Virus record (IMG/VR): IMGVR_UViG_2974619728_000001 | Coordinates: 1-31,834 of that record | DNA length: 31,834 bases | Direction: 5' to 3' (one strand) | DNA from: a virus | Taxonomy: Duplodnaviria > Heunggongvirae > Uroviricota > Caudoviricetes > Peduoviridae | Shown: piece after piece, positions 1,223 to 26,141 of the stretch | Layout: each line of letters opens with the position of its first letter | How positions within the stretch are numbered: position 1 is the stretch's first letter | Translations under genes and position numbers: made by a program | The notes under the pieces: generated by a model | Told to the model about the DNA's origin: nothing | Database searches by the model: none | The model's input: the letters and a program-made list of their open reading frames with translations, nothing else

Positions 1223-2994
1223 CAGTAAAACTCCAGAATGGTGGATGTCAGCGGGGTGCTGATACCGGCGGTGAGTGGCTCATTTAACAGGGCGTGCATG
1301 GTCGCCCAGGCGAGGTCGGCGTGGCTGGCTTCCTCGCTGCGGCTGGCCTCATAGGTGGCGCTGCGTCCGCTGCTGGTCATGGTCTTGCGGATAGCCATAA
1401 ACGAGCTGGTGATGTCGGTGGCGCTGACGTCATATTCCAGACAGCCACGGCGGATAACGTCTTTGGCCTTGAGCACCATTGCGGTTTTCATTTCCGGCGT
1501 GTAGCGGATATCGCGCGCGGCGGGATAGAACGAGCGCACGAGCTGGAACACGCCGACACCGAGGCCGGTGGCATCAATACCGATGTATTCGACGTTGTAT
1601 TTTTCGGTGAGTTTGCGGATGGATTCCGCCTGGGTGGCAAAGTCCATGCCTTTCCACTGGTGACGCTCAAGTATTCTGAATTTGCCACCGGCCACCACCG
1701 GCGGTGCCAGCACCACGCATCCGGCGCTGTCGCCACGGTGTGACGGGTCGTAACCAATCCATACCGGGCGGGAGCCGAACGGATTGGCGGCAAACGGCGC
1801 ATAGTCTTCCCATTCTTCCAGCGTGTCGACCATGCAGCGTTGCAGCTCCTCGAACGGGAACACCGACGCCTTGTCGTCAACAAATTCACACATGAACAGG
1901 TTTTTAAAATCGTCGGCGCTGTTTTCGCGTTTAAGCTGCTCAATGTCGAACAGCGTGCAGCCACCTTTCAGGGCGTCCTCAATGGTGACAATCTGCCGCC
2001 ACTGGCCGTCCGCACAGAGAAGACCTCCGGCAAGTGCGTTATGACTGACGTCGATTTCCACGCGTTCGGCGGCGCTGGCGCGTCCCCGGTTGAACAGTTC
2101 ACCCGACCAGAACGGGTAGGCGTCGTGCGCCAGCGTGGACGGGGTGGAGAAATAGGTCGAGCGCAGGTGACTCTGTGAGGCCATACCTGATGCCACCTTA
2201 CGCAGTACCTGAAAATTCGGGATCCAGAAAATCTCATCGACGTACAGGTCGCCGTTATGGCTCTGCGCGGTGTTGGAGTTGGTGCCGAGAAAAATCAGTT
2301 TTGCGCCGTTATTGCCCAGGACAATCGGGTCACCGGTCAGGTCAACGTCAACCAGACGGGCAAAGGCGATGATGTATTCGCGGAACACATACGCCTGCGT
2401 TTTACTGGCTGACAGAAAAATCTGGTTATGGCCGGTTTTCAGGGCGCGCAGCAGCGCCTCGCGGGAAAAATAAAACGTCGCGCCAATCTGGCGGGATTTC
2501 AGGATATCGCGGATGCGGTGCTCAAGCCCGGCGCGATACCAGTGCAACTGATATTCGAAAGACTGCTCAAAGAAAATCTGCTCCAGCTTTTCGATGGCCT
2601 CGTCACTGAAAAAATTCTTTTTCGGTTTGCGACGCCCGCCTTTGTTGCGGTTAGCGACGTTCGGATTAAGGTCTGCCTCGTTGCCGGTCTGACTGTAACG
2701 GTTGACCCGTGCCAGTCGTTCAATCTGGCGTCCGAGCAGGTCAATTTCCTTGAAGTCACCGCCGGTTTTCTGCGGTTTGATGATGAGCTGGGTCAGTCGC
2801 GCTTCCAGACTCATTTCGACACGGCTGATGGGGGCAACGCTGTCCCAGCCGTCGCGCTGTTTCCAGCTCTGCACCGTCGGGCGTTTCATCTGCAACATGG
2901 CGGCAATCTGCGGCACGGAAAACCCCTGCCAGTACAGCAGCGCCGCCTGACGACGCGGGTCGTGTAAAAGAGTGGTGTCTGTGGTGATGGTCAT
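1222..2994 (-). CDS. P: terminase large (ATPase) subunit, P2 gpP-like, about 590 aa
   Basis: 600-aa ORF; start placed at internal Met (MTITTDTTLL) to match P2 gpP length; its stop overlaps the Q start by 1 nt. Confidence 0.88.
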   Translation of the reverse strand: MTITTDTTLLHDPRRQAALLYWQGFSVPQIAAMLQMKRPTVQSWKQRDGWDSVAPISRVEMSLEARLTQLIIKPQKTGGDFKEIDLLGRQIERLARVNRYSQTGNEADLNPNVANRNKGGRRKPKKNFFSDEAIEKLEQIFFEQSFEYQLHWYRAGLEHRIRDILKSRQIGATFYFSREALLRALKTGHNQIFLSASKTQAYVFREYIIAFARLVDVDLTGDPIVLGNNGAKLIFLGTNSNTAQSHNGDLYVDEIFWIPNFQVLRKVASGMASQSHLRSTYFSTPSTLAHDAYPFWSGELFNRGRASAAERVEIDVSHNALAGGLLCADGQWRQIVTIEDALKGGCTLFDIEQLKRENSADDFKNLFMCEFVDDKASVFPFEELQRCMVDTLEEWEDYAPFAANPFGSRPVWIGYDPSHRGDSAGCVVLAPPVVAGGKFRILERHQWKGMDFATQAESIRKLTEKYNVEYIGIDATGLGVGVFQLVRSFYPAARDIRYTPEMKTAMVLKAKDVIRRGCLEYDVSATDITSSFMAIRKTMTSSGRSATYEASRSEEASHADLAWATMHALLNEPLTAGISTPLTSTILEFY

Positions 2995-8917: not shown

Positions 8918-9368
8918 GTTTAAGCGTTTTGAAGACCGGCTGACCGGACTGATTGAGTCGCTGTCACCGTCAGGGCGTCGGCGACTGGCGGTAGATATTG
9001 CGAAGAAACTGCGCCAGCGCCAGCAGCAGCGAATTAAATTACAAAAAGGCCCGGATGGTACGCCGTATGTACCGAGAAAAAACCAGCCAGTGCGAAATAA
9101 GAAAGGCCGGATAAAGCGGGAAATGTTTGTGAAATTACGCACTAACCGGTTTATGAAAGCAACAGGTAGCGAGAGTGCGGCGGTGGTGGAGTTTGCCAGC
9201 GGGGTGCAACGAATTGCGCGAGTACATCAATTAGGGCTTAAGGATAAGCCGGGGCGTAATAGTGCTGTGGTGGAATATCCTGTTCGTGAGTTATTTGGTT
9301 TTGACAAGGAATCTATACAATTGATAGAAAGGGAGTTATTAGTGATTCTATCGAAAGATGTTATATGA
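8910..9368 (+). CDS. S: tail completion protein, P2 gpS-like, 152 aa
   Basis: MNEFKRFEDRLTGLIESLSPSGRRRLA...; start overlaps R stop. Confidence 0.88.
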   Translation: MNEFKRFEDRLTGLIESLSPSGRRRLAVDIAKKLRQRQQQRIKLQKGPDGTPYVPRKNQPVRNKKGRIKREMFVKLRTNRFMKATGSESAAVVEFASGVQRIARVHQLGLKDKPGRNSAVVEYPVRELFGFDKESIQLIERELLVILSKDVI

Positions 9369-23984: not shown

Positions 23985-24200
23985 ATGTGGACGCTATGTG
24001 GACAGCGGTTGACATAAATCCATTTATATCATCAGGTTAGGTGCTTTTTTTTGACACCATCCCTGTCTTCCCCCACATGATGTGGGGGTTTTTTTTATCA
24101 ATTACTTACATGCAATCAAAAGTAAAAACAGGTACTTATCGAAAGCTGTAAGGGTTTGGAGCGGTTTCAAAATTTCTTGAGTGTGGACACTATGTGGACA
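23985..24200. other. attP: attP-like region: two pairs of direct TGTGGAC(A) repeats flanking a ~180-bp segment that includes a strong hairpin/T-tract
   Basis: ATGTGGAC at 23985-23992 and 23996-24003; TGTGGACA at 24183-24190 and 24193-24200; sits between ogr and int as in P2. Confidence 0.6.
24070..24096 (+). terminator. hairpin CCCCCACAT-G-ATGTGGGGG followed by T8 inside the attP-like region
   Basis: Seen directly; may be the copied 3' end/terminator of the host target gene. Confidence 0.55.
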
Positions 24201-24215
24201 CTCAGAGGGGGAAAT

Positions 24216-25196
24216 TTATAACGTCACTCCGCCTTTTAGTGGATTCAGAGCGACGGCATTTTGCAGATAGTCAGGCGCAAGGTGCGCATAGGCCATCGTC
24301 TGCTGAATACTCGCATGTCCCAGAATCTGTTGCAGTGCGATTATATTGCCCCCATTCATCATGAAATGGCTTGCGAATGTATGCCGCAGGATGTGGGTTG
24401 CCTGATTGGGTGGTATATCAGGCTTCACTCTGCGTAGAATCCCGCAAAACTTCTCATAATCAACTTTGAACAATTTGGCGCTAGCCTCCTCTTTAACTTT
24501 TTTCTCCAGTTCCTCAGAAATCGGCACGGTTCGCTTTTTACCGTTTTTGGTTTTCAGGAAGGTAACCCTGCAACTTGTAATCTGTGCTGGTTTTAGCGTG
24601 GCAACTTCCGTCCATCTTCCCCCAGTGCTCAGACATAAAAGCGCGACAAGTAAGTCATCACCAGCCAAAACATTTAACAGTTTTTCGATTTCTGCTTTTT
24701 CCAGGAACGTCATTTCAGGGGTGGCCTCCGCCAGTGGCGGCAGTCCGTGAATTGGGTGTTGCCCGGAAAATTCATCCAATTGAATTAATTTTGTGAACAT
24801 GCCGGATAATCGGTACATGTCACGGTTTATCGTTGCGGCACTGATGCCATCACGTAGTCGCATGGAACGATAATCCATCAAAGCCCTTTTGCTCATCCGG
24901 CTCACTGGTATATCACCTATGCCGCTGATGGTTTTGAGCAGATGATTAAACTCTTTTGTTCCATGCTCGTGGTTTTGCCCGTGATATTTCCACCAGATGT
25001 CCAGCAACTCACTCAAAGTCCGGCGGTCTACTCGCTGGCCTCCCCATTCTTTCTGACTGGCATTGGCGATTGTGTATCGCTCAAATGCTAGTGCTTCAGC
25101 TTTTCTTTCGAATTTCCTGCGGATGCGTTTTCCGTCGCGACCGCGAGGTCTAATGTCCACTTCATAGCGACCATCATCGAGCTTCTTAATTGCCAT
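24216..25196 (-). CDS. int: tyrosine integrase, P2 Int-like, about 326 aa
   Basis: MAIKKLDDGRYEVDIRPRGRDGKRIRRKF N-terminus; C-terminal HxxR...Y recombinase pattern (ATHILRHTFASH...MAYAHLAPDY); start placed at internal Met. Confidence 0.88.
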   Translation of the reverse strand: MAIKKLDDGRYEVDIRPRGRDGKRIRRKFERKAEALAFERYTIANASQKEWGGQRVDRRTLSELLDIWWKYHGQNHEHGTKEFNHLLKTISGIGDIPVSRMSKRALMDYRSMRLRDGISAATINRDMYRLSGMFTKLIQLDEFSGQHPIHGLPPLAEATPEMTFLEKAEIEKLLNVLAGDDLLVALLCLSTGGRWTEVATLKPAQITSCRVTFLKTKNGKKRTVPISEELEKKVKEEASAKLFKVDYEKFCGILRRVKPDIPPNQATHILRHTFASHFMMNGGNIIALQQILGHASIQQTMAYAHLAPDYLQNAVALNPLKGGVTL

Positions 25197-25265
25197 AAGA
25201 AAGCCCTCCGGCGCTGTATTCACCATCTTGGTAGCAAATGGTGAAAATGTAATCTTTATATAGAG

Positions 25266-25559
25266 TTAGCCAATCCTTTTCGCGGAGTGGTTGGACTCTG
25301 TTGACTCTGGCCCAATGTGCGCGAGAGCCGGTGCGATTTGTCCTGCGTCCGGCGCGGTTTTATCTGTCATAAGCCATAGAGCATATTTTTGGAATGTGGG
25401 ATGCATAGTGATTTTTAGCAAAGCTGTGCCACCGGGTTCAAAGTTTCCTCCTTCATATTTTTTAAGTGTGCTTAGCGGTAACTCTATGATTTCACAGAAT
25501 TTTGATTGGCTTAGCCCTTCAGCCTCACGCAAGGCCTTAATCTTTTCGCTTAATTTCAT
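25266..25559 (-). CDS. C: immunity repressor C (P2 C-like), 97 aa
   Basis: Small ORF divergent from cox; shares ...GQIAPALAH... with P2-family C but is clearly diverged elsewhere. Confidence 0.75.
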   Translation of the reverse strand: MKLSEKIKALREAEGLSQSKFCEIIELPLSTLKKYEGGNFEPGGTALLKITMHPTFQKYALWLMTDKTAPDAGQIAPALAHIGPESTESNHSAKRIG

Positions 25560-25680
25560 TTGACATGGTGCCTATATATGGACTAAATTCCCTCAAAACT
25601 GGAATCTATATAGGTTCCATTGATTTGAGAATAAACCAGCGTCTAAACGGTTTTGAGTGGTTTAGAAAGGGCTGGATCCT
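25560..25680. promoter_or_regulatory. C/cox divergent promoter-operator switch region (Pc/Pe)
   Basis: 121-bp gap between divergent C and cox; contains TTGACA at 25560-25565 and repeated ATATA(T)GG motifs. Confidence 0.55.
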
Positions 25681-25968
25681 ATGAGGGTACCATATATGGA
25701 CGCTGAAAATTATGTGATTCAGTATCCGCTTGATGCGGTTCATGTGGATAAATTTGCTGATTTATTAGGGAAGCCAAAGACAGCCGTCAGTGAAATGGTG
25801 AAGGCAAATAAATTACCAATTATTGAATTGCGTGATCCTTGCAAACCGAAGGCTCGTGCCGGTGAAAAATGGGTTTTCATTCCTGAGTTTAATCGCGCTG
25901 TACGTGAGGCGTTTTATAACCGACCGGTTGAACAGCGTGATGCATGGCTTTTGTGGATGGGGTTGTGA
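25681..25968 (+). CDS. cox: Cox-like excisionase/transcriptional regulator, about 90-95 aa (start may be internal Met at 25696)
   Basis: Position, size and ...GEKWVFIPEFN...RDAWLLWMGL resemble P2 Cox. Confidence 0.75.
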   Translation: MRVPYMDAENYVIQYPLDAVHVDKFADLLGKPKTAVSEMVKANKLPIIELRDPCKPKARAGEKWVFIPEFNRAVREAFYNRPVEQRDAWLLWMGL

Positions 25969-25970
25969 TT

Positions 25971-26141
25971 ATGAATGAGCCGCGTTGTATTGCTCAGTTA
26001 CTGCGTAACGAAAGCCCCAGGGCGATTGACTTCACCATCACCCACGGGAAGGGTCGCAAGGGAATCATTATCCGCACCAAAAAACAGAGTCCGTTAAAAA
26101 AGGCTCTGACCTTTCTGAAAAGCCGGAGGGTCTGGAAATGA
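25971..26141 (+). CDS. small early protein, P2 orf78-like, 56 aa
   Basis: MNEPRCIAQLLRNES...; short ORF between cox and B as in P2; function unknown. Confidence 0.55.
   Translation: MNEPRCIAQLLRNESPRAIDFTITHGKGRKGIIIRTKKQSPLKKALTFLKSRRVWK

Follow-up and report, generated by a model that had tools for sequence, protein, structure and literature searches.

A P2-type lysis-lysogeny switch of the L-413C immunity type, with one private substitution in each putative operator half-site

The region between the C and cox genes of the P2-like phage genome analysed here (Peduovirus; the whole stretch of 31,834 nucleotides, which looks complete, is called the window below) is quite probably a P2-type lysis/lysogeny switch with the immunity of Yersinia phage L-413C: the C repressor would act through two operator half-sites, O1 and O2, each of which carries one change private to this genome, and an exact 10-bp repeat singled out in an earlier note on this DNA would be coincidental. 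As a P2-family operator of a known immunity type the element is ordinary, and it is notable only for a possible double operator mutation.

The int-C-cox module and its relatives

The closest phage record shares 97% identity with the window across the structural genes, and the int-C-cox module is of the L-413C type (the features are collected in Table 1). The window and L-413C encode the same C protein (100% identity), whereas the C proteins of P37, WPhi and P2 share 66%, 56% and 42% identity with it; residues 3-97 of the window protein are homologous to P2 C as solved in 2XCJ/2L49 (E 1.9e-21), and the protein is assigned to the Pfam family HTH_3. Cox is assigned to Phage_Cox (PF10743, E 1e-23), and its identity to the WPhi and P2 Cox proteins is 82% and 41%, respectively. 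C is encoded on the minus strand and cox on the opposite, plus strand, the divergent arrangement of a P2-type switch. The earlier note had called the region a C-cox switch with an immunity specificity distinct from that of P2, and both statements hold: homologues of C and Cox are encoded on opposite strands, and the C protein is that of L-413C (100%), far from that of P2 (42%). C, int and attP all appear intact.

Positions 25230-26000 are 99.2-99.7% identical to the corresponding DNA of L-413C, P2_T22, P24B2 and other phage records (MET_P1_103_31, vB_YpM_50, P2_AC1, FSL SP-004, vB_EcoM-569R9 and HQ103 are in the same range); one member of this group, KC618326, is the T22 prophage, deposited under the name 'Escherichia phage P2'. 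Chromosomal prophages with the same switch are found in 420 of 5,426 complete E. coli genomes (∼8%), the genomes for which the true operator of L-413C-type immunity is relevant. The immunity type of the window is a known and common one. Among IMG/VR loci, recombination moves the C/operator module independently of the Cox/Pc module; a near-identical downstream block, CCAGCCGCTAGAACGTTTTCAAACGGTTTAGAAAGGGCTGGATCTTACGAGATTAACAC, is common to several distinct C classes, with the junction just past the O2 hairpin described below.

The cox gene is annotated in two ways. PGAP (WP_001308179.1) and most records give a 273-nt gene starting at ATG 25696, a start codon conserved in WPhi and P37 with a GAGG 9 nt upstream, whereas L-413C and 569R9 are annotated with a longer ORF of 95 aa from ATG 25681. 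This upstream codon is ATA in WPhi, and in P37 the reading frame from it runs into a TAG stop, and the long ORF is probably wrong.

Table 1. Features of the attP-int-C-cox region (window coordinates)
Feature	Position	Strand	Details
attP P-arm Int sites, ATGTGGAC x2	23985..24003	+	at 23985 and 23996
attP P'-arm Int sites, TGTGGACACT x2	24181..24202	+	at 24181 and 24192, 11 bp apart; just downstream of int
int	24216-25226	-	
C immunity repressor gene, 97 aa	25266..25559	-	ORF; identity to L-413C C; homology to 2XCJ/2L49; Pfam HTH_3
Pe -35, TTGACA	25560..25565	+	promoter scan; abuts C start codon
O1 half-site (putative)	25571..25580		here CCTATATAtG, consensus CCTATATAGG; private G>T at 25579, half-site position 9
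Copy 1 of ATATATGGAC	25574..25583	+	overlaps O1 and 3 bp of spacer
Pe -10, TAAATT	25584..25589	+	promoter scan; 18-nt spacer
Inverted repeat/hairpin centred on O2	25592..25629		inner arms 25600-25619
O2 half-site (putative)	25605..25614		here tCTATATAGG, consensus CCTATATAGG; private C>T at 25605, half-site position 1
Region aligned with the WPhi repeats	25641..25675		CCTAGAAAGGAC/CCTAGAAGGGAC align to 25642-56 and 25661-75
Pc (predicted)	25679..25692	-	start ∼25679, -10 region TGGTACCCT (25692 down to 25684); from WPhi alignment
Copy 2 of ATATATGGAC	25692..25701	+	straddles cox start codon, within predicted Pc spacer
cox, 90 aa	25696..25968	+	conserved start ATG 25696; GAGG Shine-Dalgarno 25683-86

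Putative operator half-sites at the early promoter

The early promoter Pe fits the promoter consensus at 10 of 12 positions. Its -35 hexamer is shared without change by L-413C, P37 and WPhi, and its layout is that of the annotated P2 and WPhi early promoters (the P2 GenBank record AF063097 annotates -35, O1, -10, O2 and Pc; the original WPhi record annotates Pe and Pc). Transcription from Pe would start at about 25595, a position transferred from the WPhi record, in which the Pe feature covers 1757-1793 and 1794 is taken as +1, in agreement with the published 82-nt overlap. The repressor promoter Pc was mapped in the same manner, through the WPhi Pc feature 1875-1911(-), with which the published WPhi distances agree (82-nt transcript overlap and Pc 60 nt from O2; PMC1904263); in the window Pc is placed by the WPhi alignment only, and it has no recognisable -35.

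C repressors of the P2 family bind two direct half-sites at Pe, and the published operators differ in size and placement (PMC1904268, PMC2995052): P2 has 8-bp half-sites 22 bp apart (centre-to-centre) around the -10, P2 Hy dis has 8-bp half-sites 26 bp apart (centre-to-centre) around the -35, and WPhi has 10-bp half-sites 34 bp apart (centre-to-centre) around the -10. Binding by C, and derepression when both half-sites are mutated, have been shown for P2, P2 Hy dis and WPhi (PMC1904268). The oligonucleotide used for cloning the WPhi Pe/operator reads TTGACAGTAACC-TATTGGTGAC-TTATATTCCCGTCAAAAGGTTGTG-TATTGGTGAC (PMC1904263).

Two half-sites in just this arrangement are conserved among the relatives of the window. 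We retrieved 63 IMG/VR loci encoding relatives of C, 37 of them with a C protein 99-100% identical to that of the window, and all 37 carry CCTATATAGG twice, with a start-to-start distance of 34 bp, in a switch that reads CAT-TTGACA-TGGTG-CCTATATAGG-GAC-TAAATT-CCCTCAAAACTGGAA-CCTATATAGG-TTCCATTG. Eight phage records and the 420 same-type prophages of E. coli typically have this pair as well. Each consensus half-site is a perfect palindrome. The consensus thus has the two half-sites of a P2-family operator, and the window keeps both, with one mismatch each: when up to one mismatch is allowed, CCTATATAGG is found at O1 and O2 and nowhere else in the whole window (0.28 occurrences are expected). 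The two sites bracket the Pe -10 and the predicted Pe start, and O1 begins 11 nt from the start of TTGACA (12 nt for O1 of WPhi).

The positions of the half-sites are shared more widely than their sequence. In other C classes these two positions hold a repeat of another sequence (e.g. TTGATACCAT twice at 34 bp, and CCTATTTAGG/CCTATATAGG, CCTAATTAGG/CCTATATGGG and CCCATATAGG/CCTATATGGG at 32-34 bp). In five related classes, with a recognition-helix region like that of the window (ST[LV]xKYExG), the pairs are CCTAWWTAGG-like and the CC/GG edges are invariant in all 12 half-sites (12/12). Operators are said to have been surveyed in all seven classes by Karlsson in 2006, and the C operator of WPhi was reportedly described by Liu and Haggard-Ljungquist in 1999. 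From positional homology and conservation we infer that O1 and O2 are putative binding sites for C.

The switch would then work as follows. Pe would read rightward into cox (ATG 25696), and a weak Pc would read leftward from about 25679 into C; C dimers are predicted to occupy O1 and O2, 34 bp apart, on either side of the Pe -10 and start, and in doing so would exclude RNA polymerase from Pe and keep it off.

WPhi is the named system that the window resembles in most of these details: the two share gene order, a TTGACA abutting the C start, 10-bp half-sites 11-12 nt from the -35, the 34-bp spacing, an O2 that lies within the early transcribed region inside a hairpin, and converging promoters (predicted for the window) with a transcript overlap of ∼82-85 nt. 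They differ in that the WPhi half-site TATTGGTGAC is non-palindromic, whereas CCTATATAGG is a perfect palindrome, in that the C proteins are only 56% identical, and in that the distance from the cox start to the Pc -10 block is shorter by 19 nt in the window. With P2 the window shares a homologous C, two direct half-sites around the Pe -10 and, by prediction, face-to-face Pe and Pc; however, the P2 half-sites (GTTTAGAT twice, 8 bp long and 22 bp apart) are non-palindromic and unlike those of the window, both proteins are distant (C 42%, Cox 41% identical), and the P2 Cox boxes (TTAAAG/CNCA) are absent from the window switch. With palindromic half-sites, the structural model of one C dimer per half-site becomes simple to test.

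Two private substitutions in the half-sites

The window differs from the consensus at two bases, 25579 (G>T, in O1) and 25605 (C>T, in O2). These are its sole differences from its three closest relatives within 25031-26000 (∼970 bp), whereas the DNA flanking this interval differs from the same three relatives every few tens of bases. By position alone, the probability that two of two differences would fall one in each 10-bp half-site is ∼2e-4 (our own arithmetic). Both bases lie at the CC/GG edges that are invariant across the related repressor classes, and neither substitution is seen in any of nine phage records.

The same holds for larger collections. All 420 E. coli prophages differ from the 121-nt switch of the window by more than one mismatch; 407 of them carry the consensus O1 31-mer unchanged, and 415 the consensus O2 40-mer. 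Among the variants, of which we sampled two of 13 for the O1 region and one of five for the O2 region, the changes are at 25563, 25566, 25588, 25589, 25599 and 25641, none of them within the half-sites. Searches of the metagenome, GTDB-representative and IMG/VR collections gave no exact match to the O1 20-mer of the window, whereas the consensus O1 20-mer matches 35 IMG/VR contigs; the O2 20-mer of the window has two matches only, both unrelated and attributable to chance. No nearby template was found for the change at 25605, the sole other GGAATCTATA in the window being at 9308. Some of the same-type E. coli prophages alter the hexamers of Pe instead (TTGACA>TTGGCA, and TAAATT>TAAATC or TAAACC, at 25563, 25588 and 25589); such changes are expected to lower the strength of the early promoter, possibly as a sign that these prophages are attenuated.

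P2 vir and lambda vir are operator-constitutive mutants of temperate phages. Repression may likewise be weakened in the window phage, because both of its half-sites are hit at invariant edge bases. We tentatively suggest, as a serious possibility that falls somewhat short of an even chance, that both operator half-sites of the phage have been mutated, naturally or under selection, with a 'vir-like' result: the affinity of C for its operator would be lowered, Pe would escape repression and plating would be clear or virulent. A precedent exists in WPhi, in which the O1mut:O2mut combination abolishes repression but either single change does not (PMC1904268); that construct has one point change per half-site, as in the window.

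A less likely account, though one that deserves attention, is that the two substitutions are neutral polymorphisms or sequencing errors and leave repression unaffected. Single point changes in P2 and WPhi half-sites keep repression in vivo and have small effects in vitro (PMC1904268), and C, int and attP, as noted above, appear intact. Neutrality, however, does not predict that the only two differences in ∼970 bp should be distributed one per half-site, nor that both should strike the invariant CC/GG edges, and neither change was found in this context in the collections searched (0/420 prophages within one mismatch).

Among same-type phage records, L-413C is an exception: the other phage records and the E. 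coli prophages of this type have CCTATATAGG intact at both sites, whereas the window has one change per site, and L-413C, with an identical and intact C protein, has a set of changes that differs from that of the window (25571 C>A at O1 position 1, 25588 T>C in the Pe -10, and 25617 C>A in an arm of the O2 palindrome). L-413C has been described as a lytic or clear-plaque mutant (PMC3448106, PMC2893161). In HQ103, a 7-bp deletion (25394-25400 in window coordinates) truncates C. Both records are thus hit in the function that is suspected to be impaired in the window. If the vir-like reading of the window is true, plaque-isolated P2-like phages would have become obligately lytic in parallel ways, through the lesions of L-413C, the C deletion of HQ103 and the changes of the window, and the window phage could grow on bacteria that carry the very common L-413C-type prophage. 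Changes that weaken repression would also make it a ready-made virulent derivative overcoming L-413C-type immunity, of relevance to diagnostic or therapeutic P2-like phages such as L-413C, and a natural test of the WPhi rule that both half-sites must be hit.

The O2 hairpin, the exact repeat, and Cox and Int sites

O2 is at the centre of an inverted repeat: in the consensus, 25600-25619 is a perfect 20-bp palindrome (TGGAACCTATATAGGTTCCA). A hairpin is found here in every C class examined, with stem sequences that vary between classes. The consensus sequence folds at -16.4 kcal/mol on the plus strand (z -5.1) and at -18.4 kcal/mol on the minus strand (z -5.3), and the 25605 change of the window weakens the hairpin to -13.8 and -11.7 kcal/mol, respectively. 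Folding each sequence separately, on which the hairpin claim rests, gives z-scores mostly from about -2 to -6.6, with weak values (about -0.2 to -1.5) for WPhi and two other classes; RNAalifold on the sequence-only alignment, which does not bring the stems of different classes into register, gives a weak consensus (-0.68 kcal/mol), although even there base pairs are changed on both sides.

These properties would suit an element that is mainly structural, i.e. an O2 hairpin or DNA cruciform that affects RNA stability or the interference between the converging transcripts, with the repeats as by-products. We regard this as improbable, since O1, which repeats the O2 core exactly, precedes the transcript start and is not part of the hairpin, and the same two positions in WPhi are proven C sites. 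The choice is not a strict one either: a hairpin and an operator are not mutually exclusive. The top of a CCTAWWTAGG-type stem is itself the palindromic half-site. The hairpin is compatible with the operator assignment and leaves O1 unexplained; it may have a function, either at the 5' end of the early transcript or within the Pc leader. Half-site conservation could be due in part to RNA or DNA structure, the half-sites being AT-rich palindromes inside a larger conserved hairpin.

Returning to O1 and O2 as the putative sites of C, we can place the repeat that the earlier note had offered as candidate operator or Cox-box motifs. ATATATGGAC is indeed present exactly at 25574-25583 and 25692-25701, with TATATAGG at 25607-25614. 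Copy 1 is next to the C start as described (the ATG is at 25559); copy 2 is inside the 5' end of cox for the long ORF from ATG 25681, but with the conserved start at ATG 25696 it straddles the start codon. As operator motifs they were partly well chosen, since copy 1 overlaps O1 and TATATAGG is within O2, but the pair predicted to function is O1/O2 at 34 bp and not the two exact copies 118 bp apart. All relatives have ATATAGGGAC at copy 1, a 9/10 match to 25692-25701; the private 25579 G>T makes O1 equal to the cox-start sequence, and the exact 10-bp repeat is therefore, as far as these comparisons go, a coincidental by-product of the O1 substitution with no conserved pair behind it.

That the two exact copies are nonetheless bound as a pair by C or Cox (e.g. 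looping Pe to Pc or the cox start, with TATATAGG as a weaker third site) seems to us very unlikely. The pair is real, and a direct exact 10-mer repeat arises in just 0.9% of dinucleotide-preserving shuffles of 25560-25701 (n=20,000); copy 2, on the predicted Pc spacer and the cox start, is sensibly placed for regulation, and autoregulation of Pc by C has been reported for P2 (PMC3448106). The pair is unremarkable genome-wide, however, because the 31.8-kb window has ∼14 independent exact 10-mer pairs no more than 150 nt apart. Copy 2, moreover, co-varies with the cox/Pc module and not with the C type in the comparison with P37 and WPhi: P37, with a different C and operator, reads ACATAGATGGAAG here (11 of 14 bases kept). 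Nothing similar is present in classes that combine a CCTAWWTAGG operator with another cox type. When the consensus half-site is aligned to it in register, copy 2 (CCATATATGG) shares only the four edge bases CC/GG; shifted registers give a 7/10 match, of which ∼100 are expected per 32 kb (our own calculation). The two exact 10-mers were thus rejected as an operator pair, their identity being private to the window and copy 2 tracking the cox module. We take copy 2 to be conserved as a translation and promoter signal, and the comparisons give no specific support for it as a C or Cox site.

The proposed Cox-box sites fared no better. The P2 Cox box (TTAAASNCA, one mismatch or fewer) does not occur in 25560-25705: the whole window has 58 such matches against ∼47 expected by chance, none of the 58 in this interval, and the P2 arrangement of at least six copies of TTAAAG/CNCA covering Pc is absent; P2 Cox boxes in the switch were rejected accordingly. 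WPhi has imperfect direct repeats of 12-15 nt, CCTAGAAAGGAC and CCTAGAAGGGAC, 20 bp apart, which, in work by Ahlgren-Berg et al. in 2009, were reportedly identified as the target of WPhi Cox. The aligned interval of the window (25641-25675) is the likelier place for the predicted Cox binding, although a direct-repeat search found no WPhi-like Cox repeats in 25615-25700, nor in P37.

The earlier note had also seen a resemblance to the attP arm repeat. That the motifs are arm-type sites at which the integrase binds the switch can be set aside almost entirely: ATATGGAC matches the arm site ATGTGGAC at 7/8 in the window, but the consensus O1 (ATAGGGAC) does so at 6/8 and the likeness is unconserved in WPhi and P37, which have the same Int arm type and read CAATGGAAG and AGATGGAAG at the cox start; P2-type arm sites (consensus tgTGGaCa; PMC3448106) are paired repeats, and the switch has single 7/8 matches; and the best match, 10/11 between ATATGGACGCT at the cox start (25694-704) and the P-arm site ATGTGGACGCT (23985-95), with an estimated chance of ∼1%, came from a post-hoc search and consists of the cox codons ATG GAC GCT. 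We rejected this unconserved match as a coincidence.

Finally, the interval between O2 and Pc has inverted repeats of its own (TCTAAAC/GTTTAGA at 25642-25648/25660-25666 and TAAACCA/TGGTTTA at 25632-38/25658-64), and GTTTAGAA at 25660-67 is a 7/8 match to the P2 C half-site GTTTAGAT.
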